A stretch of 64,000 bases of DNA from Clostridia bacterium. GTDB lineage: Bacteria; Bacillota; Clostridia; UBA1381; UMGS1253. Shown one piece after another: positions 1,279 through 62,943 of the stretch. Numbering within the stretch: the stretch's first letter is position 1; each line of letters starts with the position of its first letter. The stretch lies in NCBI GenBank assembly GCA_045652745.1, contig JAZRUW010000015.1, positions 3,120 through 67,119 on the forward strand, read 5' to 3'. The notes beneath the pieces are model-generated. The model ran no database searches, was not told the DNA's origin, and saw nothing but the letters and a program-made list of their open reading frames with translations. A program made the position numbers and the translations under genes.

Positions 1279-2708
1279 TAAAGGGCGCAATTTTTGATTT
1301 AGACGGAACTTTAATTGACTCTATGTTTATTTGGGATACTATTGGAGAAGATTATTTGAAATCTTTCGGTATAGAACCAAAAGAAAACCTTGCGGAAATT
1401 TTTAAAACATTTACGCTTGAACAAGCCGCAGAGTATTATCGAAAGCAGTATGGGGTTACACTTTCTGTTGAGGAAATCGTAGATGGCATAAATAATATGG
1501 TGGCAGAAATATATCGGACAAAAGTAATGCTTAAACCGGGTGCAAGTGATTTTTTGAAAAGATTGCAGAGGTCGGATGTGAAAATGTGTATTGCAACCGT
1601 AACAGACAGACCTATTGCAGAAGATGTTTTGAAACGGTTGAATGTTCGTGAATACTTTTCTGCAATATTCACTTGTGCTGAGGTTGGATATAACAAAGAA
1701 ACACCCGAAATTTACAGAGAAGCGCTAAATCATCTTGGAACTCCCAAAACGGAAACCGTCGTTTTTGAAGACGTGCTTCACGCCATAAAAACGGCTAAGG
1801 AAGATGGGTTTAAGGTGGCGGCAGTTTATGATGCACACGAACCCAAACAAGAGGAAATAAAAGAAGTTTCAGATTATTACATAATGGATTTTGGTAGTTT
1901 TTGTTTTAAGACGAAAATGAAAACGGCGCTTACGATTGCAGGCAGTGATTCCAGTGGCGGCGCAGGTGTTCAAGCCGATATTAAAACCATGACAATGCAT
2001 GGGGTTTATGCAATGAGTGCAATTACGGCACTGACGGCACAAAACACGCTTGGAGTAAGAGCGATTTTAGAGGTGGCACCTGACTTTTTAAAACAACAAC
2101 TTGATGCGGTGTTTGAAGACATATTCCCGGATAGCGTGAAAATCGGAATGGTGTCATCAAGTGCATTGATAGAAGTAATCGCAGAACGGCTAAAACATTA
2201 TAATGCAAAAAACATTGTAGTAGATCCCGTAATGGTAGCAACAAGCGGCTCTGCGCTCATAAAGACAGAGGCAATAAACACATTGGCTGAAAAGTTATTG
2301 CCCATTGCAACCCTTGTAACTCCAAACATTCCCGAAGCAGAAATCTTATCAGATATGAAAATCAAGAGTAAGGACGATATGATCAAAGCTGCAGAATTCA
2401 TTGACAAAAGCTATGGATGTAGTGTTCTGTTAAAAGGTGGTCATAGCATAAACGATGCAAATGACCTTCTGTGTGAAAACGGCCGATTTGTATGGGTTGA
2501 TGGTAAAAGGATTGATAATCCTAACACACATGGAACGGGATGCACTTTGTCAAGTGCCATTGCATCCAATCTTGCTAAAGGATTTCGCCTCGTGGATGCG
2601 GTGAGAAAAGCGAAAGATTACATATCTGATGCACTTTCAGCAGGCCTTGATTTAGGGGATGGTTCGGGGCCAATAAAACATAATTTTAAAATAAATAGTG
2701 GTATCTAA
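1275..2708 (+). CDS. thiD: fusion protein: N-terminal HAD-IA phosphatase domain + hydroxymethylpyrimidine/phosphomethylpyrimidine kinase
   Basis: ATGA overlap with the thiE stop. The N-terminus has the HAD motif FDLDGTLIDS and a later EDVLHAIKTAKEDG segment. From about residue 215 it reads as typical ThiD (LTIAGSDSSGGAGVQADIKT ... GTGCTLSSAIA). There is no stop codon between the two halves. Confidence 0.85.
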   Translation: MIKGAIFDLDGTLIDSMFIWDTIGEDYLKSFGIEPKENLAEIFKTFTLEQAAEYYRKQYGVTLSVEEIVDGINNMVAEIYRTKVMLKPGASDFLKRLQRSDVKMCIATVTDRPIAEDVLKRLNVREYFSAIFTCAEVGYNKETPEIYREALNHLGTPKTETVVFEDVLHAIKTAKEDGFKVAAVYDAHEPKQEEIKEVSDYYIMDFGSFCFKTKMKTALTIAGSDSSGGAGVQADIKTMTMHGVYAMSAITALTAQNTLGVRAILEVAPDFLKQQLDAVFEDIFPDSVKIGMVSSSALIEVIAERLKHYNAKNIVVDPVMVATSGSALIKTEAINTLAEKLLPIATLVTPNIPEAEILSDMKIKSKDDMIKAAEFIDKSYGCSVLLKGGHSINDANDLLCENGRFVWVDGKRIDNPNTHGTGCTLSSAIASNLAKGFRLVDAVRKAKDYISDALSAGLDLGDGSGPIKHNFKINSGI

Positions 2709-2783
2709 ACCATTCGGCCTACCAACCAAAGAAGCACCCATGCGGGTGCTTTTTTGTTGGTATATGAAACTCAAAATGCTTTA

Positions 2784-3866
2784 TTATTTCAGCATTTGAC
2801 GGAGCTTTCTTCTCGTTCGGTTTATATGCCGTTCAAAATCGCCCTTTGCGATAAATTCTGCAAGCACATATTGCTCAAAGACAGGTACGGTACAGGAGTA
2901 AAATCCCATTTTGTTATAAAACGGCTGGACAAGGTCTTTCGGCAATACCATGTAACCGATTCTCATGGAGGGCGCAATGGTTTTTGTGAAGGTATTTACA
3001 TAGATTACACTGCGCGTGGGCTCAAGCGAAAAAACGGTGTCTTCATTTTTGGTGGATATTGTAAATTCCGAATTGAAGTCATCTTCAATAATTACGCCAC
3101 CCCGGTCCTTTGCCCATTGTATATACTCATTTCGCTTTGAGGCGCTTGCAGTGATGCCGCTCGGAAAGCTTCTGAAAGGGGTTATATGCAGGACGGATGC
3201 ACCGGTTTTTGCAAGTTGTGATGTTAAAATGCCGTCCTTGCCCAATTTGAGCAAATCACACCGGGCACCGTTGGCTCTGTATACGGAGTGAATCTTTTCG
3301 TAGGACGGATTTTCCAGGGCATATATTTTATCACGGCCCAAAAACTGCACGATCAGGCCGTAGAGATATTCTGCGCCTGAGCCGATTACAATCTGGTTAT
3401 ATCCAACATGAATGCCTTTGCTTCTGGCAAGATAATCCGCAATTGCTTTTCGAAGCTCGGTGCATCCGGCGTTCGGAGATTTTATCAAAATGTTTTCTCC
3501 GTGTTTTGATATTACATTGCGCATTGTCTTGGCAAGTACGGAAAACGGGAAATCGTTTGTTTGCTCATGCGGGAGTTTTGCGGGCATATCGGGCACATCA
3601 TTTTCTGCAATCGGCACAAAATCGTTTTTTCGGTAGGCAACAAAGTAGCCTCTGCGTTCTTGCGCTTCGATGTAGCCTTCATCACATAAAATTCCGTAAG
3701 CGTGCTCAACGGTAATTACACTTGTTCGTGTTTCCTCTGCAAGAATACGCTTGGAAGGCAGTTTGTCTGCGTATTTATACAGGGAATTTATGATGTCGCT
3801 TCGGAGTTGTTCGTACAGCTGCATATATGCTTTTTTTGGGGATTTTGCATCAATGGAATATTTCAT
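2784..3866 (-). CDS. MocR/PdxR-type regulator (GntR wHTH + fold-type I aminotransferase-like domain), short form
   Basis: N-terminal GntR-type wHTH (LPSKRILAEETRTSVITVEHAYGILCDEGYI). The aminotransferase-like body carries a PLP-lysine-type motif (NTFTKTIAPSMRIGY). At 360 aa it is shorter than I expect for this family. Confidence 0.75.
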   Translation of the reverse strand: MKYSIDAKSPKKAYMQLYEQLRSDIINSLYKYADKLPSKRILAEETRTSVITVEHAYGILCDEGYIEAQERRGYFVAYRKNDFVPIAENDVPDMPAKLPHEQTNDFPFSVLAKTMRNVISKHGENILIKSPNAGCTELRKAIADYLARSKGIHVGYNQIVIGSGAEYLYGLIVQFLGRDKIYALENPSYEKIHSVYRANGARCDLLKLGKDGILTSQLAKTGASVLHITPFRSFPSGITASASKRNEYIQWAKDRGGVIIEDDFNSEFTISTKNEDTVFSLEPTRSVIYVNTFTKTIAPSMRIGYMVLPKDLVQPFYNKMGFYSCTVPVFEQYVLAEFIAKGDFERHINRTRRKLRQMLK

Positions 3867-3957
3867 CTGGCTATATTAAATTCTCCTCAATTGGTAATTG
3901 CGATATGTTCAGAATTATTATATAATAAACAAAAATTTTTGTAAAGGGGTTTTCGAA

Positions 3958-4455
3958 ATGAAAACAAACACACAAAAAATTGTAACGGCGTCCATGCTTG
4001 CAGCGCTTTGCTGTGTAGCGACAATGATTATCAAAATACCGTCGCCGCTTAAAGGATATCTGAATTTAGGTGACTGCGTTGTGCTTCTTTCCGGTTGGCT
4101 TTTGACCCCGGCATATGGACTTGCGGCTGCGGGCATCGGTTCTGCACTTGCAGATTTGTTCTCCGGTTATGCGGTATATGCGCCTGCAACTTTCATCATC
4201 AAGGGTCTTATGGCACTAATTGCGCATTTTTGTTTTAAAGGTATACATAATAAGATTGGCAATACGCCTGCAAGAGTGATTGGCGGTGCGCTTGCTGAAA
4301 TTGCAATGATCCTCGGTTATTTTGTTTTTGAAGGATTTATGTATGGCTTTGCACCGTCCGCGGTAAATATACCCGCAAACGGCGTGCAAGGCATTGCAGG
4401 GTTCATTATTGGACTGGTACTTGTGAAAATATTTGAGAAATCAAAGATGTTTTGA
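3958..4455 (+). CDS. ECF-transporter S component (substrate-capture subunit), substrate unknown
   Basis: ATG at 3958 follows AAAGGGG; the track start at 3898 is less likely. About 165 aa, multi-pass and hydrophobic, with an ECF-S-like core (LNLGDCVVLLSGWLLTPAYG..GSALADLFSGYAVYAPATFIIKG). Divergent from the MocR-type regulator. Confidence 0.65.
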   Translation: MKTNTQKIVTASMLAALCCVATMIIKIPSPLKGYLNLGDCVVLLSGWLLTPAYGLAAAGIGSALADLFSGYAVYAPATFIIKGLMALIAHFCFKGIHNKIGNTPARVIGGALAEIAMILGYFVFEGFMYGFAPSAVNIPANGVQGIAGFIIGLVLVKIFEKSKMF

Positions 4456-4490
4456 GTCCGGATGGCGGTATTTTCATTATATTACTCTAT

Positions 4491-4518
4491 AAAAGAGCAC
4501 TTACAGAGTGCTCTTTTG
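4491..4518 (+). terminator. intrinsic terminator after the ECF S-component gene
   Basis: Hairpin AGAGCACT/AGTGCTCT followed by TTTT. Confidence 0.7.
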
Positions 4519-4520
4519 GT

Positions 4521-4598
4521 ATTTAGAAAAAAATCTAAATAGCTATTGACAAAACAATTAAGCCATGATATATTGTATTTAGATAATTATCTAAATAC
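4521..4598 (+). promoter_or_regulatory. promoter flanked by two palindromic operators for the ArsR/SdpR-type repressor
   Basis: ATTTAGAAAAAAATCTAAAT lies at 4521-4540. A perfect 24-bp palindrome GTATTTAGATAATTATCTAAATAC lies at 4575-4598. Together they bracket TTGACA(4547-4552)-17-TATATT. Confidence 0.6.
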
Positions 4599-4618
4599 CG
4601 GCAGAAGGGGGTATGTAT

Positions 4619-4888
4619 ATGGGCATGAATGAAACATTAAAAGCAATTTCCGATCCGATACGCAGAGATATTTTACAAATGCTGAAGGGCGGAAGGAAAT
4701 CCGCAGGTGAAATTGCGGAGAAATTTGATTTGACGGGGGCGACGGTGTCGTATCATTTGTCCAAACTCAAAAGCGCGGATTTGATTGCCGAACAAAAGTA
4801 CAAAAACTTTATTTATTACGAACTCAACACATCGGTTTTCGAAGAGGTTTTAAGTTGGATTTATACTTTGGGAGGGAAGCAAAAATGA
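4619..4888 (+). CDS. ArsR/SdpR-family transcriptional repressor
   Basis: Winged-HTH motifs are present (ISDPIRRDILQML...AGEIAEKFDLTGATVSYHLSKLKSADLI). The start could be 4613, 4619 or 4625. The 3' end overlaps the next gene by 4 nt. Confidence 0.8.
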   Translation: MGMNETLKAISDPIRRDILQMLKGGRKSAGEIAEKFDLTGATVSYHLSKLKSADLIAEQKYKNFIYYELNTSVFEEVLSWIYTLGGKQK

Positions 4889-5499
4889 AAAAGATAAAAT
4901 GGAAATATCTCTTGCTGACTTGTGCGGTTTGTCTTTTGCCGATTGCGTTCGGCGTAGTTTTATGGGAAAAATTGCCGCAGACCATCGCTACACATTTTAA
5001 TATACACAACGAGCCGGACGGGTTTTCTTCCAAAGCCTTTGCGGTGTTCGGTTTGCCGGTGCTGATGGCGGTTTTGCAGGCGATTTGCTGTTTGATTAAC
5101 GATTTCAATGCGGCAAAGCACGGTGAACGCAAGAAATTTGAACATGCGACGAAATGGATTATTCCGGTAATGAGTATCCTGTTGCAGGGCGCAATATTTG
5201 CGTATGCCCTGGGTTTGGCGATAGATATTCACAAGGTGGCGTGTGTGATTGTCGGCGCGGTATTTTTGGTTGTCGGCAACTATCTGCCGAAATTCGATTA
5301 TGTGAAAAACTATGATTTAGATACGCAGAAAGCGAGAAAAATCAATCGTTTTATCGGTTATGAAAGTTTTGTGATGGGACTGTTGTTTCTGATCAGCATC
5401 TTTATGCCGCCGGCGTTTAGTATTGCCTGTCTCATTTTGTTAATCCCGTATGCAGTTCTCAGTATTGTTTACAGTATTTGGGTTATAAAAAGAGGATAA
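4885..5499 (+). CDS. SdpI-family / DUF1648-type integral membrane protein
   Basis: ATG at 4885 (MKKIKWKYLLL..). Multi-pass membrane protein with an N-terminal segment WEKLPQTIATHFNIHNEPDGF. Paired with an ArsR/SdpR-type gene, as in sdpR-sdpI modules. Confidence 0.65.
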   Translation: MKKIKWKYLLLTCAVCLLPIAFGVVLWEKLPQTIATHFNIHNEPDGFSSKAFAVFGLPVLMAVLQAICCLINDFNAAKHGERKKFEHATKWIIPVMSILLQGAIFAYALGLAIDIHKVACVIVGAVFLVVGNYLPKFDYVKNYDLDTQKARKINRFIGYESFVMGLLFLISIFMPPAFSIACLILLIPYAVLSIVYSIWVIKRG

Positions 5500-5560
5500 C
5501 TTGCATAATTACATCCGAAGCTACACATACTTATCGTATCAAAACAAAGGATGTGAAAGT

Positions 5561-52243: not shown

Positions 52244-53101
52244 TTATTTTTGATTAAATTCATTTCTGCGTTCTGTCGAAATACGCATCATACTGCGCAT
52301 TTCCTCGCGGTCGTTGTTTTTAACGCAGTTGTAGAGTTTATCGAAAGTGTTTCTGTATTTTTCCATCTCTTTTAAGAGTGCGTCGCGGTTGGACAGGAAA
52401 AGCTCGCTCCACATTTCGTCGTTGATACGTGCAATTCTCGTTAAGTCGCGGAACGAGTCGCCCGTATAGAGCACAAGGCCGGGGTTATCGTTTGCGCACA
52501 TTAAAGATACAGCGATACAGTGCGTAAGCTGGGACAGAAAGGCAATCATTTCATCATGCTTTTCCGGATTCAAAACCGAAATACGTGCAAAGCCTAAAAT
52601 TTCACCGAGCTGTTTGCACAGTTCAATCGCACCGAATGTGTTCTTTTCGGTAGGTACAACAATGTAGTTTGCGCCTTGGAAAATCTTGTCATCGCTGTTT
52701 TGCACACCGCTGACCTCGCGCCCTGCCATCGGGTGCGCCGAGATAAATTCCACACCCGGTTTGAGCAGATTTTGGATTTCGTGAACGATACAACCTTTCA
52801 CACCGGTGACATCGGTAATCACAGTACCTTCTTTAATCAAATCACCATAGGTCTTTATCCAATCGGCAAAGGTGTGCGGATACAGCGCAAATACAATGAT
52901 GTCAGCCGTCTGTATGAGGCTTTTATCTGCAGAAGTACTGCCTTGGTCAATTAAGTTGTTTTCGAGTGCATAATCAATGTCTTCTTGGTTTTTGGTGATT
53001 GCGGTTACGAAAAACCCTTTCTTCTTCAGTGCCATCGCATAGCAACCGCCCAAAAGACCTAAACCGACAATTAAAAATTTTTTAGATGCATCTATTTTCA
53101 T
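52244..53101 (-). CDS. tyrA: prephenate dehydrogenase
   Basis: Rossmann motif IVGLGLLGG and the HPMAG motif, in aro operon context. Confidence 0.85.
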   Translation of the reverse strand: MKIDASKKFLIVGLGLLGGCYAMALKKKGFFVTAITKNQEDIDYALENNLIDQGSTSADKSLIQTADIIVFALYPHTFADWIKTYGDLIKEGTVITDVTGVKGCIVHEIQNLLKPGVEFISAHPMAGREVSGVQNSDDKIFQGANYIVVPTEKNTFGAIELCKQLGEILGFARISVLNPEKHDEMIAFLSQLTHCIAVSLMCANDNPGLVLYTGDSFRDLTRIARINDEMWSELFLSNRDALLKEMEKYRNTFDKLYNCVKNNDREEMRSMMRISTERRNEFNQK

Positions 53102-53105
53102 GGTG

Positions 53106-54311
53106 TCACTCCTGTTTTTGCATTTTTATACCCAGTTTTTCGATTGTTTCAAAAAAGTCGGGATAGCTTTTTGCTACGGCTTGGGCGCCTTCGATTTCGC
53201 CGCCGGTGACGGTGCACAAAAGTGCGAGTGCCATAACAATACGATGGTCGTTGTGTCCGTTCAAGGTTGTCTGCGGTGTTTGCAGTTTACCGTGATGAAT
53301 GGTTACGGCATTGTCTTCAACGGTGGTCTTTATGCCGAATTTTAAAAGTTCCTCCGCCATCGCCGTTGCACGATCGCTTTCCTTGATTTTCAGCCGTGCC
53401 GTACCCGTAAATTTCGCGCCGCCGCAATAGGCGGCCATAGCAAACAATACCGGTGCAAGGTCGGGACAATCGGAAAGGTCAAAACTTTTTTTGCCGTCTG
53501 CAAGAGCATGGAATATATCAGCATAAACACGGTCGCCCTGCAGGCTGTCTTTGTTTAGACCGCGCACCTTTACCGTACCGCCAAGAAGGTTAAAGCCTTC
53601 TAAGAATGCGGCGTTGGAGCAATCGCCTTCGACGCATGCTGCAGCATTTTTGTAGGCTTGCTTGCCGCGGACGTAAAACACGTTGTCTTTGCGCTGTATG
53701 TCTATGCCAAAGGTGTTTAAGGCGGACAGCGTCAGGTCAATATAGGATGCGCTTTCAAATTTGCCCGTTACGGTCAGCGTGCTGTCACCGGAAAGCAACG
53801 GCAGGACAAACAGAAGACCCGTAATAAACTGACTTGAAATGTTGCCGGGAACGGTGTAATTGCCCGGTTTTAATTTGCCGCAAACCGTAACGCCGGTTTC
53901 GCTTTTTTCAAACAATATCCCTTGGTCTTTGCAGATTTGCTTATAGACCGACAGCGGTCTTTCGAAAAGCCTTGCGCTGCCTGTCAGTGTTATTTTTTTG
54001 ACTGCAAACAGACAGAGGGGGAGTAAAAATCTTAAAGTTGAGCCGCTTTCATCGCAAAATAAAGTTGTATTTGCAGGGATGTTTTCCGGCTGCAAACCGC
54101 CGATTTTTGCGGTTGCCCCGTCAAAGCAAGCTGTTGCGCCCAGAGCCTGCAAGCAGGCAATGGTCGCCGAAATATCTTTGGATGCGGCCAAGTTTTCAAT
54201 GCGGCTTTCACCGCTCAGTGCACCGCAGATGAGCATGCGGTGCGCTATGCTTTTGGACGGTGGCGCATCAGCGTATCCTTTGGCTATTGATTTATGGATA
54301 ATGACTTTCAT
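53106..54311 (-). CDS. aroA: 3-phosphoshikimate 1-carboxyvinyltransferase (EPSP synthase)
   Basis: PPSKSIAHR, ESGSTLRF and DHRIVMALA motifs are present. Confidence 0.9.
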   Translation of the reverse strand: MKVIIHKSIAKGYADAPPSKSIAHRMLICGALSGESRIENLAASKDISATIACLQALGATACFDGATAKIGGLQPENIPANTTLFCDESGSTLRFLLPLCLFAVKKITLTGSARLFERPLSVYKQICKDQGILFEKSETGVTVCGKLKPGNYTVPGNISSQFITGLLFVLPLLSGDSTLTVTGKFESASYIDLTLSALNTFGIDIQRKDNVFYVRGKQAYKNAAACVEGDCSNAAFLEGFNLLGGTVKVRGLNKDSLQGDRVYADIFHALADGKKSFDLSDCPDLAPVLFAMAAYCGGAKFTGTARLKIKESDRATAMAEELLKFGIKTTVEDNAVTIHHGKLQTPQTTLNGHNDHRIVMALALLCTVTGGEIEGAQAVAKSYPDFFETIEKLGIKMQKQE

Positions 54312-54326
54312 TTGGTTTCACCGCAC

Positions 54327-55415
54327 TTAAATATGTATTTCTTTTTCAAAAGTGCCGACCACTTTCAAGTGGGCACAGCAGGTTTTCAATTCCTCAAGCA
54401 TGGCTTTGCCGTACGGGCTGTTAATGCTGCCTTCGCCCTCAACAAAGAAAAAGTAGTCCCAGACAAGTTCTTTTGTAGGGCGGCTTTTAAGTGCACGCAG
54501 GTTAAAGCCGTGACGGCCGATGACGGAAATCGCATTGCCAAGTGCACCGGCCGAATTTTTTACGGTAAAGAGCATAATAAATCTTTCGTCCGTCGGCATA
54601 CTTGCGCGGCTTGACCGTGAAAATACCGCAAATCTTGTTGTATTGGTATTGCTGTCGTTGATGTGCGAGGCCAATACGGTCAGGCCGAATTTTTGTGCAG
54701 CTTCTTCGCTTGCAATCGCTGCTATGCTTTTATCTGCAGTCTTTGCCACTGTTTTAGCGGCACCTGCCGTATTGACTGCATCCTCCGTGTCAAAGCCGTG
54801 TTGGCGGATGTAGGCGGCACATTGGCCGAGCGCCTGCGGATGGCTGACCACCTTTTTCACATCTTCGAGCGTAGCACCCGGCACACCTAAAAGGTTTTGC
54901 ACAATTTGGGCTTCGTAAACGCCGTTTATGTAAAGCGAACCGAAAAAGGCCAGGTCAAGCACATTGCCCACGTCGCCGTTGTGGCTGTTTTCTATCGGTA
55001 AAACCACACAATCGCAGTCTCCGTTTTCGCAGGCTTTGTAGGCGGCTTTGAAGTCGGCATAGGGCAGACAAATGGCATCCGGGAAAATCCTTTGCGCTAC
55101 GATGCCTGCAAATGCGCCTTCCACGCCGGCAAAGCCGACGCGCATGCCCTCTAAAAGCTTGTGCTGCATATCTTTAGACAACTTGATATTATTTTTCAGG
55201 AAGTTCACGTAGTAACTTTTATATTCTTCATTTTCGATAAGTTCGGCATTTTTTTGCAGAATTTCGGTTTCTCTGCCGAAATCATCTATCGGAATGCCGT
55301 TTGCCTTTTTGTAGGCCGTAACCAGCTTGACTGCATCCATTCGTTTTTCAAATAACGCTGCCATCTCGCGGTCAACTTCATTTATAGTTTTTCTTGCTTG
55401 TTCAAGTTCGTTCAT
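54327..55415 (-). CDS. pheA: bifunctional chorismate mutase / prephenate dehydratase
   Basis: N-terminal CM helix segment (INEVDREMAALFEKRM). PDT domain (ENSHNGDV, TRFAVF). C-terminal ACT domain (GALGNAISVIGRHGFNL). Confidence 0.85.
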   Translation of the reverse strand: MNELEQARKTINEVDREMAALFEKRMDAVKLVTAYKKANGIPIDDFGRETEILQKNAELIENEEYKSYYVNFLKNNIKLSKDMQHKLLEGMRVGFAGVEGAFAGIVAQRIFPDAICLPYADFKAAYKACENGDCDCVVLPIENSHNGDVGNVLDLAFFGSLYINGVYEAQIVQNLLGVPGATLEDVKKVVSHPQALGQCAAYIRQHGFDTEDAVNTAGAAKTVAKTADKSIAAIASEEAAQKFGLTVLASHINDSNTNTTRFAVFSRSSRASMPTDERFIMLFTVKNSAGALGNAISVIGRHGFNLRALKSRPTKELVWDYFFFVEGEGSINSPYGKAMLEELKTCCAHLKVVGTFEKEIHI

Positions 55416-55433
55416 GTTTCTGCTCCTCTCGGG

Positions 55434-56462
55434 TTACAGTTTTTCTGCGATTTCGTAAATGAGATTTTCGGTCTTTTCCCAGCCGAGACATGGATCGGTG
55501 ATGGATTTGCCGAATACGTGTTCACCGACACTTTGTGCGCCGTCTTCCAGATAACTTTCAATCATCAGTCCTTTAACAAGTCGTTTGATATCGCCGTTCT
55601 GGTTACGGCTGTGGACGATATCTTTTGCTATACGAATTTGTTCTAGATATTTTTTGCCGGAGTTATTGTGGTTTGTGTCTACAATAACGGACGGATTTGT
55701 AAGCTTGGATTGTTCGTAAAGTTCTTTGACGCGCAGAAGGTCTTCGTAGTGATAGTTCGAGCAGTTGCGTCCCGCGTAGTCGATATAGCCGCGCAAAATA
55801 GCATGCGCATAAGGATTGCCGTCGCTGGTGACCTCCCAGCCGCGATAGAGGAAGGTATGGCTGCTTTGAGCGGCAACGATGGAATTCATCATCACGCTTA
55901 AATCGCCGCTTGTAGGATTTTTCATACCGACCGGAGCTTCGATACCGCTGGCAGTGAGGCGATGCTGTTGATTTTCCACGGAGCGCGCACCGATGGCTAC
56001 ATAGGACAAAAGGTCGGAAAGATAGCGATAGTTTTCCGGATAAAGCATTTCATCGGCACAGGTGAAACTGTAATCGCGCAGTGCCGTAAGATGCAGGTCG
56101 CGGATGGCAACGATACCTTTGTACATGTCCGGCTTTGCATCCGGATCGGGCTGGTGAAGCATACCTTTATAGCCCTGACCGGTTGTGCGCGGTTTATTGG
56201 TGTAAATTCTGGGAATCATGATGATTTTATCCGATACACGGTCTGCCACCTTGCGCAAGCGGGAAAGGTATTCCAAAACAGGCTCTCGGTGGTCAGCCGA
56301 GCATGGGCCGATGATTAAAATGAATTTATCATCGGTGCCGTCAAAGATGGCCTTGATTTTTGCATCGCGCTCAGTTTTCGTATTGACCATGCACTCTGTA
56401 AGCGAATATTCTTTTTTTACCTCCTGCGGAATGGGGAGTTTTCTGTGGAATGTCATTGCCAT
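55434..56462 (-). CDS. aroG: 3-deoxy-7-phosphoheptulonate (DAHP) synthase
   Basis: 342 aa. IIGPCS, KPRT and DTNHNNSGK-type motifs are present. First gene of the aro operon. Confidence 0.85.
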   Translation of the reverse strand: MAMTFHRKLPIPQEVKKEYSLTECMVNTKTERDAKIKAIFDGTDDKFILIIGPCSADHREPVLEYLSRLRKVADRVSDKIIMIPRIYTNKPRTTGQGYKGMLHQPDPDAKPDMYKGIVAIRDLHLTALRDYSFTCADEMLYPENYRYLSDLLSYVAIGARSVENQQHRLTASGIEAPVGMKNPTSGDLSVMMNSIVAAQSSHTFLYRGWEVTSDGNPYAHAILRGYIDYAGRNCSNYHYEDLLRVKELYEQSKLTNPSVIVDTNHNNSGKKYLEQIRIAKDIVHSRNQNGDIKRLVKGLMIESYLEDGAQSVGEHVFGKSITDPCLGWEKTENLIYEIAEKL

Positions 56463-56483
56463 TTAGATTACCTCTGCTTTCTA

Positions 56484-56546
56484 AAATAAAAAATCCGCAT
56501 TATTTATGCCAAAAGCATAACGAATGCGGACTGTCCGTTGCGGAAC
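56484..56546 (-). terminator. leader attenuator: intrinsic terminator with overlapping alternative pairings
   Basis: In the minus-strand RNA, GUUCCG-CAA-CGGAC-A-GUCCGCAUU..(inner hairpin)..AAUGCGGA is followed by UUUUUUAUUUU. CGGAC can pair with either the upstream UCCG or the downstream GUCCG, which is the 5' arm of the terminator. Confidence 0.7.
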
Positions 56547-56564
56547 ATGGTGTATATACACCGT

Positions 56565-56630
56565 TTAATTCGCGAGAGACGGGCAGCCCTGGACAAAGTA
56601 ATAAAAGAAATAAAAATACTTTTTCAACAT
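56565..56630 (-). CDS. aromatic-rich leader peptide MLKKYFYFFYYFVQGCPSLAN (21 aa)
   Basis: ATG at 56630 lies 10 nt after GGGAGG. Codons 5-12 are eight consecutive Tyr/Phe codons. It sits between the promoter and the leader terminator of the aromatic amino-acid operon. Confidence 0.6.
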   Translation of the reverse strand: MLKKYFYFFYYFVQGCPSLAN

Positions 56631-56665
56631 TATGACTGCGCCTCCCATTTGATTTATTACTGCAT

Positions 56666-56694
56666 ATTTTACGCCTGTTTTTGGTATTTGTCAA
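56666..56694 (-). promoter_or_regulatory. sigma-A promoter of aro operon leader
   Basis: On the minus strand: TTGACA (56694-56689), 17-nt spacer, TAAAAT (56671-56666). Confidence 0.7.
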
Positions 56695-56699
56695 TACTT

Positions 56700-56951
56700 T
56701 TAAATAAATTTATTTCAACATATCGATTTCCTGCAGACCTGCGACTGCTGAGCAGTTTGACCGTTGCTGTTGTACCAGCCACATAGGAAGTTTCGGTGAT
56801 TTTTCGCACAAAACTGTCTGCTGCATTTGCTGCACATATCCACGCCTGTTTTAAATTCGGTCGGGCTTTCGCAGTTGACAACCTGTCGCCAGAATTGCAG
56901 ATATTCGTCTTTCATACTGTCAATTATTTTTATGCGTTTACCCAAATCCAT
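56700..56951 (-). pseudogene. truncated/frameshifted remnant of an M20 peptidase paralog
   Basis: MDLGKRIKIIDSMKDEYLQFWRQVVNCESPTEFKTGVD parallels the N-terminus of the intact M20 gene at 16936 (..VDALNEEYIKIWEDVCNIESPTKYKAGVD). Similarity is lost after GVD and the ORF ends within about 40 codons. Confidence 0.5.
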
Positions 56952-57000
56952 TTTATCACCCCAAGGGAAAAAGGGCAGAAAAAATCTGCCCTTGGTTTCA

Positions 57001-60000
57001 TTAGTATTCAATTACGCCCTCGTATACGAGTTCTGCGTTACCCGTCAGGTATACAGCTTTATCTGTATAGCGAACGATGAGCTCGCCACCCTTGACGCGA
57101 ACAACGATGTCCTCGTCTTTTAAGCAGTAGCCGTTTTCAACAGCTGCAACTACGGCCGCACACGCGCCTGTACCGCAGGCCGGTGTTTCGCCGTTGCCGC
57201 GCTCCCATACGCGCATACGGATGGTTTTGTTGTCAACCACGCGTACGAATTCTGTATTGATACGTTCCGGGAAGAGTTCGCTGTTTTCAAATTGCGGTCC
57301 GATTTCGGCAACGTCAATATTGTCTACACGGTCGCAGAATACGACGCAGTGCGGATTGCCCATGGAAACACAGGAAATATTGTATGTCTTGCCGCCGATG
57401 GTGACAGGCTCGTTGATAATTTTTTCTTTATCAAAGTTTGCCGGCAGTTTTTCCGGTGCAAATTCTGCCTTGCCCATGTTCACACAAGCACTGCGCACCA
57501 GACCGTTGTAGAGGTATACTTTTACCTCTTTAATACCGCTGGCGGTTTCGATGGTCATCTTTTCTTTCTTGACAAAATCATTGTCGTAGAGATATTTAGC
57601 AACACAACGGATGGAGTTGCCGGCCATCTGACCTTCGCTGCCGTCTACGTTGAACATGCGCATCTTCATATCGGCAATGTGTGATTTTTCAATCAAAACC
57701 ATACCGTCGCCGCCGATGCCGTAATGACGGTCGGTAAAGTTGATAGCGAGCGGTTCCGGACAAGTGATTTTGCCCTTATAGTTGTCGAAGAAGATATAGT
57801 CATCGCCCGTGCCCTGCATTTTGAGGAACTTGAGTTTTTGTTTGTTTGTTCTGAGCGCGGTGATGTTTACAAGTTCGGTATTTTGTTGGTTAAAGCGACT
57901 TAAGATGATATCTGCGAGGGCATTTGCGGTATCCGGGCTGGTAAGACAGGCTACGGACAGACGAAGTGCCTGCATATGCAGTTTGATGTACGCTTCAATT
58001 TCCTCCGGCTTGCCGCCGTTGGTGTAAACGATGTAATCAAATGCCTTGTTTTCCAGCATTTCGCTGACGTTTTCATCGGCAACGGCAACGACATCAATGC
58101 CGAGCGCTTCGATTAATTCTGCGCATGCCGGAGCAGCATAGATTTTGATTTTTGCATCGTCGAATTTCTTTGCAAGCTGCAGAAGCTCGTAGCGGTCTTT
58201 CATGTGCATGTTGATATACACGCCGTTTCTGCCCTGCAGATTAAAGCCTGCGGAAACCAGACCCTTAAAGAGTGCTTCGTTTAAGGTTCTGCCGATACCG
58301 AGCACTTCACCGGTGGACTTCATTTCCGGACCGAGAATCGAGTTGATGCCCGAAAGCTTTTCAAACGAGAACACCGGTACCTTTACGGTAAAGTACGGGG
58401 AGGATTTATACAATCCCGTGCCGTAACCGAGCGATTTTAAAGGCTCGCCCTGCATTACGCGTGTCGCCAAATCGACCATCGGAACACCCGTTACCTTACT
58501 GATGTACGGTACGGTTCTCGATGCACGCGGATTTACCTCGATAACGTAAAGCTCATTTTGGTAAATGAGGTACTGAATGTTGATTAAGCCCTGTGTCTTT
58601 AAAGAAAGCGCAAGTTTTTCGGAGCAGGAGATAATCTTTTCGAGCATGATGTCGCTTACGCTAAACGGCGGATATACGGCAATCGAGTCACCGCTGTGTA
58701 CGCCGGCACGTTCTACGTGTTCCATGATACCCGGAATGAGGACATCTTCACCGTCGGAGATAACGTCCACCTCGAGTTCCTTACCCATCATATATTTGTC
58801 GATGAGCACCGGATTTTCTATTCTTTGCGCCAAAATCATGTTCATGTAGCGTTCTACGTCTTCGTTGGTATGTGCGATGGTCATGTTCTGACCGCCGATA
58901 ACATAGGACGGACGAAGCAGTACCGGGAAGCCTAAAGTGTTTGCCGCTTCAAGCGCACCTGCCATATCCATAGCGGTGAGCGCCTGCGGACGCTTGATGG
59001 AAAAACGCTCCAAAAGTGCGTCAAACTGTTCGCGGTCTTCGGCCATATCAATGCTCTCCGCGCTGGTACCTAAAATCTTGATACCGCTTTCGGATAAGAA
59101 TTTAACCAGCTTGATTGCAGTCTGGCCACCGAAGGCAACTACGACACCGCTCGGCTTTTCCACCTCAATGACGTTCATAACGTCTTCCGGTGTCAGCGGT
59201 TCGAAATACAAACGGTCTGCTGTATCGAAGTCTGTGGAAACGGTTTCCGGATTGTTATTGATAATGACAACCTCGTAGCCCATTTTCTTGAGTGTCCATA
59301 CACAGTGTACGGAAGAGTAGTCAAACTCAATACCCTGGCCGATACGAATCGGGCCGGAGCCGAGCACGATGATTTTTTCGCCGGTAGTTTCCAGTTCGCG
59401 CGCTTCACAATGGTTGTCGTAACTGGAGTAGAAATACGGGGTTTGCGCCTTAAACTCGCCGCCGCAGGTATCTACCATCTTGTAGACACAACTTTTGTGC
59501 ATCGGCACTTTGCAGCCCGAAAGTCTTTCCAATGCTGCATCCGGATAGCCGAGTTTTTTACCTTCCAGATATTTTGCTTCATCTAAATTGCCCGGAAGCG
59601 AATTCTCGAATGCAACCAGATTTAAAAGTTTAGACAAAAACCACTTGTCAATTCTGGTGATTTCGTGAATTCTGTCCAGACTTACGCCGCGGCGAAGCGC
59701 TTCGTAAACTGCAAAAATTCTCTGGTCGTCCATGCGCGCCATTGCGGCTTCGATGTCCTCTTCTTCCTGCATCTTCTTCAGTTGCAGGGTGTCGAGGCCG
59801 ATTTCTGCACCGCGTACCGCTTTCATAATCGCCATTTCAAAAGTCGGACCGATGGACATAACCTCACCGGTGGCTTTCATGGCTGTGCCGAGCTTGCGCT
59901 GTGCGTAAACGAACTTATCAAACGGCCATTTCGGGAATTTTACAACAATATAGTCAACAGCCGGCTCGAAGCACGCCCATGTGCTGCCGGTTACGTCGTT

Positions 60001-61014
60001 TCTGATTTCGTCTAAGGTATAGCCAAGCGCAATTTTGGTGGTTACCTTTGCAATCGGATAGCCTGTTGCCTTACTTGCAAGCGCACTTGAACGCGATACG
60101 CGCGGGTTTACCTCGATAACCGCATAGTCAAAGCTGTTCGGGTCAAGGGCAAACTGTACGTTACAGCCGCCTTCGATTTTCAGCGCGGTGATGATGTCGA
60201 GCGCCGCCTGGCTGAGCATAGTGTATTCTTTTTTGGAGAGTGTTACGGCCGGAGCCACAACGATGGAGTCACCGGTATGAATACCTACCGGGTCAAAGTT
60301 TTCCATCGAGCAGATGGTGATGGCGTTGCCGGCGGCATCGCGCATAACCTCAAACTCTACTTCTTTCCAGCCGTAGATGTATTTTTCTACAAGAATCTGT
60401 GTAATCGGGGAGAGCAAAAGACCATTTGCGGCGATTTTGCGGAATTCATCCTCATTATAGGCCACACCGCCGCCTGCACCGCCTAAGGTAAAGGCCGGAC
60501 GGATGATGACCGGATAGCCGATGCGCGTTGCAATTTCGGTTGCAGCCTCCAAATCCGTTGCAATATCTGACGGGATACACGGCTGACCGAGTTCGAGCAT
60601 CGTCTGCTTAAACAAATCGCGGTCTTCGGCTTTGATGATGGCTTCTTCATTTGTACCGATGAGTTTTACACCCATGCGGGACAAAAAGCCTTCCTCGGAA
60701 AGTTGCATTGCAATTGTCAGACCGGTCTGCCCGCCGAGAGAAGCGAGCAAACTGTCCGGACGCTCTTTTTCAATAATACGCTTAATGGTTTCCGGCGTAA
60801 GCGGCTCTAAATAGATTTCGTCCGCCATGGCCTTATCGGTCATGATGGTTGCCGGATTGGAATTCACAAGCACGATGTCGAGGCCCGCGTCTTTTAATAC
60901 GCGGCAAGCCTGCGTGCCTGCATAGTCAAATTCTGCGGCCTGGCCGATTACAATCGGGCCGGAGCCGATGACGAGTACTTTTTTAATATTCGGATTTAAC
61001 GGCATATCATTCAC
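57001..61014 (-). CDS. carB: carbamoyl-phosphate synthase large subunit fused in-frame to diaminopimelate epimerase
   Basis: Residues 1 to about 1055 read as a full CarB (two ATP-grasp halves plus an MGS-like domain). Then, with no stop, comes KLKFLKMQGTGDDYIFFD ... GNSIRC ... VSMGNPH ... ERGNGETPACGTGACA, which is a complete DapF. 1337 aa in total. Confidence 0.8.
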   Translation of the reverse strand: MNDMPLNPNIKKVLVIGSGPIVIGQAAEFDYAGTQACRVLKDAGLDIVLVNSNPATIMTDKAMADEIYLEPLTPETIKRIIEKERPDSLLASLGGQTGLTIAMQLSEEGFLSRMGVKLIGTNEEAIIKAEDRDLFKQTMLELGQPCIPSDIATDLEAATEIATRIGYPVIIRPAFTLGGAGGGVAYNEDEFRKIAANGLLLSPITQILVEKYIYGWKEVEFEVMRDAAGNAITICSMENFDPVGIHTGDSIVVAPAVTLSKKEYTMLSQAALDIITALKIEGGCNVQFALDPNSFDYAVIEVNPRVSRSSALASKATGYPIAKVTTKIALGYTLDEIRNDVTGSTWACFEPAVDYIVVKFPKWPFDKFVYAQRKLGTAMKATGEVMSIGPTFEMAIMKAVRGAEIGLDTLQLKKMQEEEDIEAAMARMDDQRIFAVYEALRRGVSLDRIHEITRIDKWFLSKLLNLVAFENSLPGNLDEAKYLEGKKLGYPDAALERLSGCKVPMHKSCVYKMVDTCGGEFKAQTPYFYSSYDNHCEARELETTGEKIIVLGSGPIRIGQGIEFDYSSVHCVWTLKKMGYEVVIINNNPETVSTDFDTADRLYFEPLTPEDVMNVIEVEKPSGVVVAFGGQTAIKLVKFLSESGIKILGTSAESIDMAEDREQFDALLERFSIKRPQALTAMDMAGALEAANTLGFPVLLRPSYVIGGQNMTIAHTNEDVERYMNMILAQRIENPVLIDKYMMGKELEVDVISDGEDVLIPGIMEHVERAGVHSGDSIAVYPPFSVSDIMLEKIISCSEKLALSLKTQGLINIQYLIYQNELYVIEVNPRASRTVPYISKVTGVPMVDLATRVMQGEPLKSLGYGTGLYKSSPYFTVKVPVFSFEKLSGINSILGPEMKSTGEVLGIGRTLNEALFKGLVSAGFNLQGRNGVYINMHMKDRYELLQLAKKFDDAKIKIYAAPACAELIEALGIDVVAVADENVSEMLENKAFDYIVYTNGGKPEEIEAYIKLHMQALRLSVACLTSPDTANALADIILSRFNQQNTELVNITALRTNKQKLKFLKMQGTGDDYIFFDNYKGKITCPEPLAINFTDRHYGIGGDGMVLIEKSHIADMKMRMFNVDGSEGQMAGNSIRCVAKYLYDNDFVKKEKMTIETASGIKEVKVYLYNGLVRSACVNMGKAEFAPEKLPANFDKEKIINEPVTIGGKTYNISCVSMGNPHCVVFCDRVDNIDVAEIGPQFENSELFPERINTEFVRVVDNKTIRMRVWERGNGETPACGTGACAAVVAAVENGYCLKDEDIVVRVKGGELIVRYTDKAVYLTGNAELVYEGVIEY

Positions 61015-62035
61015 CTACCATTTCCATAAATTTATCAAACAGGAATGCGGCGCGCTGCGGCTCAAACTGCAGACCCATCGCCTTTTTGCTTTCGTAGAGT
61101 ACACCTTCGCAGGTTTCGTCGTTTGCATTGACGAAGCGAACGGTTGCATCTTCCGGAAGCGTGTCGGCTACAACGGCATAGCCGTGATTTTGCGCCGTGA
61201 TGTAAACTCTGCCGGTTTCTAAATCGCGCACCGGTACGTTGGCACCGCGGTGACCGACCTTTAATTTTTCGGTTTTTGCACCTGCGGCCAATGCTAAAAT
61301 TTGATGACCGAGGCCCATGCCCAAAATCGGCTTTTTGCCGAGGATAGAGCGCACGGTTTCGATGACATCCGTGTTTTCGGCCGGATTGCCCGGACCTGCA
61401 GACAGGACAATTGCGTCGTAGGTCAAAAGTTTGTCCGCTTCTATGTTATACGGAAGTTCAGTTACATGACAGCCGCGGGCATTAAACGTTTCTGCAAGCC
61501 CCTGCGTTGCACCGAGGTTTAACACGGCGATGCTGTATTTCGGATTTTCTGCCATGTGTACGTTCATTTTGCCGTCGGATACGGCTTGAACTGCATCGTG
61601 AATGGCAAAGTATTCTATCTTGCCATCCTCCGGAAGTTCGGAAACGATTTTAGCCGTCATGGAACCCTCTTCACGAAGAATACGTGTGAGTTCACGAGTG
61701 TCCACACCGTAGATACCTACGATGCCGCGCTCTTTTAAGAATGTATCCAGATCGCCTTCGCAACGGAAGTTGGACGGTGCGGTGCACAAATCGCGGATAA
61801 CATAACCTGCTGCGTATACCTTGTCGCTTTGGATATCTTCCGTGACTATGCCGTAGTTACCGATGAGCGGAAAGGTTTGCAGTACAATCTGACCGTAATA
61901 GCAGGCATCTGTCAGGGTTTCCATATAACTGCCCATCGTAGTGGTGAACACTAACTCGCCGAGTGCATCGCCCTCAGCGCCGAAGCGTGTACCTTCAAAA
62001 ACTTGTCCGTTTTTTAATACAATATATGCTTTCAT
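61007..62035 (-). CDS. carA: carbamoyl-phosphate synthase small (glutaminase) subunit
   Basis: ATG at 62035 follows GGGAGAA. The GLGHQILALA (catalytic Cys replaced? it reads G-L-G-H-Q) and GHRGANVPV motifs are present. Overlaps carB by 8 nt. Confidence 0.85.
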   Translation of the reverse strand: MKAYIVLKNGQVFEGTRFGAEGDALGELVFTTTMGSYMETLTDACYYGQIVLQTFPLIGNYGIVTEDIQSDKVYAAGYVIRDLCTAPSNFRCEGDLDTFLKERGIVGIYGVDTRELTRILREEGSMTAKIVSELPEDGKIEYFAIHDAVQAVSDGKMNVHMAENPKYSIAVLNLGATQGLAETFNARGCHVTELPYNIEADKLLTYDAIVLSAGPGNPAENTDVIETVRSILGKKPILGMGLGHQILALAAGAKTEKLKVGHRGANVPVRDLETGRVYITAQNHGYAVVADTLPEDATVRFVNANDETCEGVLYESKKAMGLQFEPQRAAFLFDKFMEMVGE

Positions 62036-62037
62036 AC

Positions 62038-62943
62038 TCATTCTCCCATGCATTTTACCAACACGGCTTTTTGCGCGTGCAGTCTGTTTTCTGCCTCGTC
62101 GAAAATTTCGTTTGCGTGTGCTTCAAATACCTCAGCAGTGATTTCCTCGCCGCGGTGTGCCGGCAGACAGTGCAGAACCATCGCATCCGGCTTTGCAACA
62201 GCCATTACGCTGTCATTGATTTGATAATCTTTAAAGATTTTCTTTCGCTCGGCTGCTTCGGCTTCCTGCCCCATGGAGGCCCATACGTCGGTGTAGAGCA
62301 CATCGGCATCCTTGGCCGCTTCCAATATGGAGTCGGTGCAGGTAAATTTCCCATTTTCACTTGCCCATTTCATTAAATCGGCATCCGGCTTGTAGTCCCC
62401 CGGGCAGGCAATTGCAACTTCCATGCCCATTTTGATGCCGCCGACAATTAAGGAGTTTGCCATGTTGTTACCGTCGCCGATGAAGCAAAGTTTTAAACCC
62501 TCCAGGCGTGTTTTGTGTTCGCGGATGGTCATTAAGTCAGCAAGTACCTGACACGGATGTGCGTAATCGGTAAGGCCGTTGATGACCGGAATGGAGCCGT
62601 ATTTTGCTAAATCCTCTACCTCTTTTTGGGTGTAGGTGCGAATCATAATGCCGTCAATAAATCTCGAAAGAACTCTTGCAGTATCCTCTACGGGTTCGCC
62701 ACGGCCGATTTGCAGGTCGTTGGAACTTAAAAACAACGGATATCCGCCGAGTTCGTACATACCGACCTCGAAGGAAACGCGCGTTCTGGTGGATGATTTT
62801 TCGAAAATCAGACCGAGTGTTTTGCCTTCGAGATGCTTGTGTGCAATCCCGTTCTTTTTTTCGTATTTGAGCTGATCTGCCAGATTGAGTGTATCCACAA
62901 TGTCTTTTGCGGACCAGTCAGAAAGCTTTAACAGATGCTTCAT
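62038..62943 (-). CDS. argF: ornithine carbamoyltransferase
   Basis: Motifs SSTRTRVSFE, SDLQIGRGE and HCLPAHRGEE are present. Confidence 0.9.
   Translation of the reverse strand: MKHLLKLSDWSAKDIVDTLNLADQLKYEKKNGIAHKHLEGKTLGLIFEKSSTRTRVSFEVGMYELGGYPLFLSSNDLQIGRGEPVEDTARVLSRFIDGIMIRTYTQKEVEDLAKYGSIPVINGLTDYAHPCQVLADLMTIREHKTRLEGLKLCFIGDGNNMANSLIVGGIKMGMEVAIACPGDYKPDADLMKWASENGKFTCTDSILEAAKDADVLYTDVWASMGQEAEAAERKKIFKDYQINDSVMAVAKPDAMVLHCLPAHRGEEITAEVFEAHANEIFDEAENRLHAQKAVLVKCMGE

Follow-up and report, generated by a model that had tools for sequence, protein, structure and literature searches.

A conserved leader with a mixed Phe/Tyr codon run upstream of aroG in Clostridia: a probable ribosome-mediated attenuator

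Introduction

The 64-kb stretch of Clostridia bacterium contig JAZRUW010000015.1 analysed in this work (from here on, the window) contains an aroG-pheA-aroA-tyrA operon, and between its promoter and aroG lies a small open reading frame (ORF) with a run of Tyr and Phe codons, followed by a terminator. The question raised by this locus is whether such an arrangement constitutes a regulatory device for an operon with two end products, and by which mechanism it could act. A first-pass annotation, made from the sequence of the window, had proposed ribosome-mediated leader-peptide attenuation of an operon for Phe and Tyr. This proposal finds support in the comparative analysis described here, given the conservation of the ORF and its aromatic run, the covariation of the terminator and two additional, mutually exclusive pairings that connect the ORF with it, and we consider it likely that the element is a classical ribosome-mediated leader-peptide attenuator, which would sense charged tRNA-Phe and tRNA-Tyr and gate aroG-pheA-aroA-tyrA.

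Results

Architecture of the leader

The elements of the leader are listed below, in transcript order. All leader-element coordinates follow the numbering of the 64-kb window and refer to its minus strand.

56666-56694 (-): promoter of SigA/sigma-70 type, TTGACA at 56694-56689, 17-nt spacer, TAAAAT at 56671-56666
56646-56641 (-): Shine-Dalgarno sequence (SD) GGGAGG, about 20 nt past the promoter and 10 nt 5' of the ATG at 56630
56634-56646 (-): segment 1, strand GGGAGGCGCAGUC of the 5' untranslated region (5'UTR), which includes the leader SD; its partner is segment 2 (pairing P1, the anti-antiterminator)
56565-56630 (-): leader ORF of 21 codons plus stop (56567-56565), encoding the peptide MLKKYFYFFYYFVQGCPSLAN
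56595-56618 (-): regulatory run, codons 5-12 of the ORF, all Tyr or Phe
56574-56589 (-): segment 2, GGGCUGCCCGUCUCUC, in the 3' half of the ORF, from the last base of codon 14 to codon 19
56549-56562 (-): apical hairpin GGUGUAUAUACACC, between segments 2 and 3 and 3' of the stop codon
56528-56538 (-): segment 3, ACGGACAGUCC, which pairs with segment 2 as the antiterminator and whose 3'-terminal GUCC (4 nt) also forms the base of the terminator stem
56531-56493 (-): intrinsic terminator, a bipartite hairpin GUCCGCAUU-CG-UUAUGCU-UUU-GGCAUAA-AU-AAUGCGGAU
to 56483 (-): U-run of the terminator, UUUUUUAUUUU, whose end is 20 nt upstream of the aroG ATG at 56462

The individual elements named in the first-pass annotation are present in the window. 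Its TTGACA-17-TAAAAT promoter agrees with the consensus at 11 of 12 positions and is the top promoter-like site within 56000-57200; the 21-codon ORF has its own ribosome binding site and eight consecutive Tyr/Phe codons; the palindromic hairpin past the stop corresponds to positions 56562-56549, and a terminator with its U-run (56531-56483) lies ahead of aroG. When the 64 kb were searched in all six frames, this was the sole stretch with at least 7 aromatic codons out of 8, while the mean number of such stretches in 100 shuffled windows was 0.03. The fold of the 200-nt leader had a z of -2.8 with respect to dinucleotide-preserving shuffles. The alternative pairing suggested originally, based on UCCG, CGGAC and GUCCG, turned out to be specific to the window. 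A CGGAC-A-GUCCG hairpin would need a loop of one nucleotide and cannot form, and the UCCG…CGGA pairing is not present in relatives, where the conserved antiterminator consists of ACGGACAGUCC and GGGCUGCCCGU, the latter inside the ORF.

Conservation in relatives

Relatives of the locus were obtained from species-representative genomes by means of the AroG protein, which yielded 80 loci. All of them belong to Clostridia, with labels such as Acutalibacteraceae, Oscillospiraceae, Faecousia and similar, and nearly all are from uncultured metagenome-assembled genomes (MAGs); L073 corresponds to an isolate, Pseudoramibacter porci. A homologous small ORF was found in 15 of the 18 loci in which AroG is 76-86% identical to that of the window (the exceptions being L005, L015 and L016), with leader peptides such as MNSKFYSYFFYFMKGCPATV, MRANKFFYYFYYFAKGCPSSVNSRA and MFVSNASYYYYYFCKGCPSFVNAEL. 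Metagenome contigs were also scanned with a DNA motif in which bases of segments 2 and 3 were fixed. Among the 120 matches listed there were at least about 24 true leaders, and around 80% of those 120 were chance matches in GC-rich contigs, which were removed by demanding an aromatic ORF. It is worth mentioning that a degenerate segment-2…segment-3 expression matches both strands (in the window, over 56528-56589), an ambiguity that can mislead motif scans as to the strand and is due to the complementarity of the two segments.

At least 42 unique leaders were gathered in this way, from 15 Oscillospirales genome assemblies and about 24 metagenome contigs. Their alignment, which the first-pass annotation had put forward as a check, reveals that all 42 have kept the ORF with its frame, its SD and its run of aromatic codons, and that the alternative pairings in their original form are not kept. 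In almost every leader for which the sequence is available, the next gene encodes an AroG 80-87% identical to that of the window. The SD, mostly AGGAGG, is located 7-11 nt 5' of the start codon across the 42 homologues. Promoter-proximal leaders with enough upstream sequence have a promoter matching at least 9 of 12 consensus positions (mostly 11-12), with a 17-nt spacer, and in promoter-proximal leaders the end of the -10 box is 28-45 nt 5' of the leader ATG, L132a being the sole exception. Since the promoter is at a fixed upstream distance, segment 1 lies at the extreme 5' end of the transcript.

Selection on codons and on RNA

To compare the run between species, a codon table was built with 39 leaders anchored on the Cys codon. 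Each of the 39 has an aromatic codon at all four positions from -7 to -4, and the aromatic share is 95% at position -8 and 82% at position -9. Within the run there is free exchange between Phe and Tyr, along with variation between TAT and TAC (20 TAT vs 16 TAC at one position). Given that only two of the nine single-base changes of TTT retain an aromatic residue, this pattern points to selection on the amino-acid class in this frame, and it indicates that the run is read as codons.

The Gly-Cys-Pro codons following the run behave in a different manner. No synonymous change was observed in any of them (GGC in 32/32, UGC in 39/39 and CCG in 37/37 leaders), which is therefore attributed to a constraint at the RNA level. 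That segment 2 is under such a constraint is confirmed by L011, where the loss of one G in segment 2 is accompanied by the loss of its partner U in segment 3, so that the pairing is retained while the resulting frameshift turns the peptide into …NKAARLL.

Three mutually exclusive pairings

Segment 2 (GGGCUGCCCGUCU…) has segment 1 and segment 3 as alternative partners, and segment 4, composed of the 3' arm of the terminator and the U-run, pairs with segment 3. The leader can thus adopt three mutually exclusive pairings in a chain, 1:2, 2:3 and 3:4, of which 1:2 and 3:4 covary.

With regard to the 1:2 pairing (P1), the consensus of segment 1 across relatives is AAUCACAAAGGAGGCAGC. When transcripts were folded as they would be before segment 3 emerges, the P1 helix was obtained in 14 of the 15 genome sequences. 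The duplex has an energy of -19.7 kcal/mol in the window, and its energy falls between -14 and -27 kcal/mol in each of the 36 promoter-proximal leaders. Each 5'UTR matches its own segment 2 better than the segment 2 of other species, and permutation of cognate and swapped 5'/3' partners never equalled the observed value (0/20000, z = -6). Because the MAFFT alignment of whole leaders (A1) mis-registers the 5'UTR, this pairing was scored by duplex energies and in a strand-only alignment (A2), made of mini-constructs in which the 5'UTR is joined to segment 2 through NNNNNN. A2 is in register for the outer 11 pairs only, and the covariation counts cover this outer helix without the inner GGCAGC:GCUGCC part. 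In these 11 pairs, 77.7% of the cells are paired, compared with 45-61% in slid controls; both partners have changed in 9 of the 11, and the covariation measures are matched by no more than 4 of 500 shuffles. An example is L006, with CGUAUA/UAUGCG in the place of the CACAAA/UUUGUG present in most leaders.

The 2:3 antiterminator is the consensus helix selected by RNAalifold, formed by GGGCUGCCCGU in segment 2 with segment 3. In most relatives segment 2 is extended by CUUUUGUG and segment 3 is preceded by CAAAAAU. Because the metagenome scan had fixed bases in both segments, the leaders found with it could not be used for the covariation test of this helix, which was done on the unbiased alignment of the 15 genome sequences; 96.7% of the cells are paired there, versus at most 41% when the strands are slid. 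Variation in 2:3 is one-sided (G-U/A-U and U-A/U-G), and a C·A mismatch becomes U-A in L014. The support for this predicted pairing thus comes from complementarity and conservation, and not from compensatory change.

Between segments 2 and 3, all 41 leaders examined have a hairpin of unrelated sequence, with a mean energy of -9.5 kcal/mol and a mean z of -2.45. The stop codon falls within the span of this apical hairpin in 41/41 cases, usually in the apical loop; in the window it is located at the 5' foot of the hairpin.

As for the terminator (3:4), 91.3% of the cells are paired in the genome-only alignment, five of its ten pairs have changed on both sides, and none of 500 shuffles matched either the observed covariation score or the percentage of paired cells.

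Variants and distribution of the leader

In several loci, two leader-attenuator units are found in tandem before aroG (L010, 3563-3992; also L082, L093, L132, L137, L153 and L170). A promoter and the 1:2 pairing are present in the first unit. The second, whose peptide ends in …GCPQIEFKR or …GCPHLYEFK, is devoid of a promoter and has a weaker SD; P1 was not found in it, the 1:2 energies being -2 to -9 kcal/mol compared with -14 to -27 kcal/mol in promoter-proximal leaders. An untranslated second unit would allow read-through by default, and the tandem pair may act as a two-stage gate.

The leader precedes genes other than aroG in L103 (about 5360-5560, on the minus strand of that locus). There, the leader and its terminator are followed by some 200 nt with a promoter-like TATAAT, and then by ORFs 3520-5160 and 1663-3435. 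The genes encode an AMP-binding enzyme of 547 amino acids (aa) and a subunit of a thiamine pyrophosphate (TPP)/4Fe-4S 2-oxoacid:ferredoxin oxidoreductase (591 aa, Pfam), a pair that, to judge from these assignments, could be a salvage route from arylacetate to arylpyruvate and Phe.

In L012, an Rfam T-box (1416-1665 (+), 110.6 bits) is located about 2 kb upstream of the leader and precedes genes 1733-3097 and 3119-3547, which encode an AMP-binding enzyme of PaaK type and an ACT-pair protein. As this T-box unit is directly upstream of the leader-aroG unit, both types of control stand side by side in one genome. L012 (3865-3976) and L008 (3897-4000) also have an insert of 126-186 nt between the terminator and aroG, GC-rich and structured in appearance, which is not in the window and for which there was no Rfam match.

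A distinct small ORF, MSKLMNVTYSYFYFNSWGYFTPVQFVVRQTSIG, is found in L046 (around 3760-4000, with aroG at 4001 and an AroG 68% identical). It has no sequence similarity to the leader of the window, and the 3'-terminal part of the ORF, GUGCGUCAAACAUC, is complementary to the 5' arm of a terminator downstream of it, GAUGUUUGCACAC, the two pairing with -16.5 kcal/mol before the 3' arm exists. Judging by these pairings, L046 apparently has an independent aromatic leader attenuator.

With respect to gene order, L007 has changed to leader-tyrA-aroG, and the leader remains the 5'-most element of the operon. In more distant loci tyrA is mostly directly upstream of aroG, and neither the leader nor a T-box was found within 4 kb. 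Relatives of lower identity with aroG as the first gene (L005, L034-L079) gave no leader either, barring the unrelated one of L046. In L005 (aroG at 3165; AroG 83% identical) a GNAT-like gene and its terminator adjoin aroG, and in L015 and L016 (AroG 77% identical) tyrA is directly upstream. These arrangements indicate that loss of the leader, or rearrangement of the operon, has occurred on more than one occasion within the clade. A 'MKCGANCF' pseudo-ORF 5' of aroG, considered as a candidate RNA element, proved to be the 3' end of tyrA read out of frame in loci with the order tyrA-aroG.

The operon and neighbouring genes

The genes downstream of the leader, according to ORF calls and Pfam, are:

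52244-56474 (-): the regulated operon aroG-pheA-aroA-tyrA, starting with the ribosome binding site GAGG at 56474-56471
56462-55434 (-): aroG-type 3-deoxy-D-arabino-heptulosonate 7-phosphate (DAHP) synthase
55415-54327 (-): pheA, chorismate mutase/prephenate dehydratase (CM-PDT-ACT)
54311-53106 (-): aroA, 5-enolpyruvylshikimate 3-phosphate (EPSP) synthase
53101-52244 (-): tyrA, prephenate dehydrogenase

Their Pfam domains agree with the previous assignment of an operon making Phe, through pheA, and Tyr, through tyrA. The locus was found with identical gene order in two independent assemblies, ENA ERZ28436101 and a Logan assembly.

Upstream of the leader, at 57001-61014 (-), there is an ORF of 1337 aa in which a complete carbamoyl-phosphate synthase large subunit is joined to a C-terminal diaminopimelate epimerase with two DAP_epimerase domains. 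This carB-dapF fusion, also called in an independent assembly (L201), overlaps the end of carA (61007-62053) and comes after argF and argD. Most of the gap between the fusion and the leader promoter is occupied by an ORF of 98 aa (56715-57011 (-)), called as a gene in L201 as well, for which no Pfam match was obtained and within which there is a terminator-like hairpin followed by T at 56993-56971. It could be a gene remnant.

Discussion

How the leader may work

The leader contains the parts known from classical attenuators: an ORF led by an SD, a run of codons for the end products, a terminator, an antiterminator in the ORF region and a 1:2 pairing that can pre-empt it. What we infer from the sequence is translation of the ORF, the positions where ribosomes stall, a requirement for RNA polymerase pausing and the response to Phe and Tyr. 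When Phe or Tyr is scarce, the ribosome would stall early in the run, inside the loop of 1:2, so that this pairing would be blocked and segment 2 would be left free just ahead of the ribosome to pair with the emerging segment 3. Once 2:3 is formed, the terminator would be deprived of the four basal pairs beside the U-tract, and RNA polymerase would read into aroG. The ribosome covers about 12 nt 3' of its A site; assuming such a footprint, with the A site at codons 1-5 of the run its edge is at least 5 nt short of segment 2. If both amino acids are plentiful, the ribosome would melt its way through segment 2 and reach the stop codon in the apex of 2:3, where its presence would prevent the 2:3 pairing, and 3:4 would form and terminate transcription. 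In the absence of translation, 1:2 would form, the SD would be hidden and termination at 3:4 would result as well. Since the run is mixed, a shortage of either amino acid would be expected to cause a response, as fits an operon that makes both.

Several observations weigh against this interpretation. Although 2:3 is highly paired, its columns are almost invariant, so compensatory support is missing (129 of 500 shuffles do as well). A ribosome placed at the stop codon leaves GGGCUG of segment 2 uncovered in most homologues, and for this reason the exclusion of 2:3 under replete conditions is a steric argument. By hiding the leader SD, P1 could limit translation of the leader. The antiterminator and the terminator overlap by only 4 nt (GUCC), and once the 5' side is masked the energies of the antiterminated and the terminated fold lie within 3 kcal/mol of each other in 34 of 38 leaders, the gap being mostly below 0.5 kcal/mol. 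The folds being nearly isoenergetic, the choice between them must be kinetic, and the dynamic range of a single unit may be modest. Finally, PMC13323073 and the review PMC7858274 (citing Johnson et al. 2020) class Bacillota among organisms with 'runaway transcription'; a pause of RNA polymerase would therefore be required, and its synchrony with the ribosome is non-trivial.

A more far-reaching version of the attenuation model, which we put forward as tentative and hold to be rather doubtful as a whole, is that gut Oscillospirales of one clade, within a phylum classed as uncoupled in its transcription, depend on an attenuator that is truly coupled to the ribosome and in which local coupling is enforced by design. 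This is a joint proposal, comprising the coupled design, pause points, a kinetic toggle, a tandem gate and a dual sensor absent from Rfam. In it, the SD-containing 1:2 helix and the stop-codon hairpin would be programmed points for pausing or holding the polymerase, the choice between 2:3 and 3:4 would be settled by kinetics alone owing to their near-isoenergetic 4-nt toggle, and the second unit of tandem pairs, without promoter or 1:2, would make up a two-stage gate that sharpens a weak response.

Other explanations

Among the alternatives, the one that best withstands the data is an RNA switch independent of translation, where the three alternative helices would respond to a tRNA, to a protein that binds RNA or to a small molecule, as in riboswitches and in T-box-like or TRAP/PTB-like systems, and the ORF would be incidental. 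The helices are indeed well supported with no appeal to translation, and P1 hides the SD, as occurs in the expression platforms of many riboswitches. Nevertheless, when both strands of 56300-56900 were searched against Rfam with cmscan at E<=10, only chance-level matches to unrelated families were obtained, with no match to T-box (RF00230), Phe_leader (RF01859) or the leu/phe leader (RF01743), and a T-box or a known leader family was discarded on these grounds. The same program detects the T-box of L012, a positive control, and at gathering thresholds a single tRNA was found by Rfam in the whole window. Regulation by the trp RNA-binding attenuation protein (TRAP), whose sites consist of 9-11 (G/U)AG triplets with a spacing of 2-3 nt, was rejected too, as the 238-nt leader has only three GAG/UAG triplets, widely spaced. 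Furthermore, the P1 loop is devoid of conserved structure and displays, instead, aromatic conservation in codon phase and a conserved SD-ATG, and the position of the stop codon relative to the hairpin is kept in 41/41 leaders, all of which makes this kind of switch improbable.

A second possibility is that the nascent peptide itself is the sensor, its aromatic residues and Gly-Cys-Pro arresting the ribosome on free Phe or Tyr in a TnaC-like manner. Gly-Cys-Pro does follow the run in nearly all leaders and in most of them the ORF ends, in a conserved way, 7-9 codons later. Yet the lack of synonymous variation in GGC, UGC and CCG fits a constraint on RNA rather than on peptide, the frame is shifted to KAARLL in L011 with the RNA pairing kept, and L006 reads GCRHMR. 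The direction of the response would also be inverted, because arrest driven by abundance would induce a biosynthetic operon. We consider this mechanism very unlikely.

The view that there is no regulation at all, with a leaky 5' terminator or a transcript-stabilising hairpin next to a fortuitous or micropeptide ORF, could appeal to the ease with which T-rich sequence gives TTT and TAT codons and to the isoenergetic terminator and antiterminator folds, but it is hardly credible in view of the uniqueness of the aromatic run in the window, the in-frame aromatic identity across 42 sequences despite varying flanking codons, the three interlocking pairings, two of them covarying, and the location of the element almost always ahead of aroG or an aromatic-pathway operon.

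Significance

If the element is the attenuator that we favour, classical leader-peptide attenuation would serve aromatic amino-acid biosynthesis in Bacillota beside T-boxes. The collection of at least 42 unique examples without an Rfam model adds a cis-regulatory family for gut and rumen Clostridia, organisms whose gene regulation is almost unknown because they are uncultured. The mechanism requires that the first ribosome match the pace of RNA polymerase over about 165 nt, and its conservation in a phylum assigned to 'runaway transcription' would offer a compact natural test of local coupling between transcription and translation; the significance would be higher if the element were a working ribosome-coupled switch in such a phylum. 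The interleaved Phe/Tyr run would be a sensor with two inputs in one element, as befits a dual-product operon, and the tandem copies have a counterpart in riboswitches and T-boxes that occur in tandem. From a practical point of view, the annotation of operons and regulons in MAGs can be improved with the motif, which might also provide a Phe/Tyr-responsive part.

Comparison with known systems

No published description of this aroG leader element was found in the full-text literature, with subscription journals mostly outside that search. The classical attenuators of Escherichia coli, pheL-pheA (RF01859), trpL and hisL, have in common with it an SD-led ORF with regulatory codons, the chained 1:2, 2:3 and 3:4 pairings and the terminator; as in them, segments 1 and 3 are alike, because both pair with segment 2. 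The element described here differs from those three in its mixed Tyr/Phe run and the combined aroG-pheA-aroA-tyrA operon, in having the 5'UTR, with the leader's own SD, as segment 1, and in the placement of the regulatory codons, which occupy the 1:2 loop and are not inside segment 1. In addition, the stop codon is in the apex of 2:3, several lineages have tandem copies, the hosts are Clostridia instead of Proteobacteria, and there is no match to an Rfam model.

The first-pass annotation had considered leader-peptide attenuation unusual for Firmicutes. This is fair inasmuch as it has rarely been reported in the phylum, and overstated in view of several precedents. One leader-peptide attenuator in Firmicutes is the leu/phe leader of Lactococcus, represented in Rfam as RF01743. 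His-leader attenuators have been predicted in the Bacillus cereus group, Peptostreptococcaceae and Erysipelotrichales (PMC9413887); they would share the mechanism, and they differ in amino acid, operon and taxa and bear no sequence relationship to the element reported here.

Two further precedents concern aroF. The closest functional analogue with data, likened here by description, is aroR of Corynebacterium glutamicum, which according to the account in PMC11802643 (citing Neshat 2014) has a Phe-Tyr-Phe leader that attenuates the aroF (DAHP synthase) operon. The same account reports experimental Phe-dependent read-through, with Tyr supply reportedly having no effect. Both are thus mixed Phe/Tyr leaders before a DAHP synthase gene; aroR, as described there, belongs to Actinobacteria and has three aromatic codons only. 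In Acholeplasma, uORFC-13-1 before aroF is described in PMC8632094 as a predicted upstream ORF (uORF) with Phe codons, a promoter, a ribosome binding site and an adjacent terminator. In that description its U-run codes for at least one Phe and it is confined to Acholeplasma and environmental sequences; compared on this basis, it precedes, like the leader of the window, a DAHP synthase gene, and its lineage is allied to Firmicutes. If the uORFC-13-1 motif is within Rfam 15, it gave no match to the leader at E<=10.

Aromatic and aminoacyl-tRNA-synthetase genes of Firmicutes are described, in earlier comparative studies (PMC1262725 and references therein), as regulated by T-boxes. T-box leaders (RF00230), the usual solution in this phylum, likewise sense tRNA charging in order to antiterminate; unlike them, the aroG leader has neither T-box sequence nor T-box structure, and its sensing would take place via translation of codons and not through binding between tRNA and RNA. 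The evidence available from sequence thus supports an uncatalogued family of leaders that operates by a classical mechanism.

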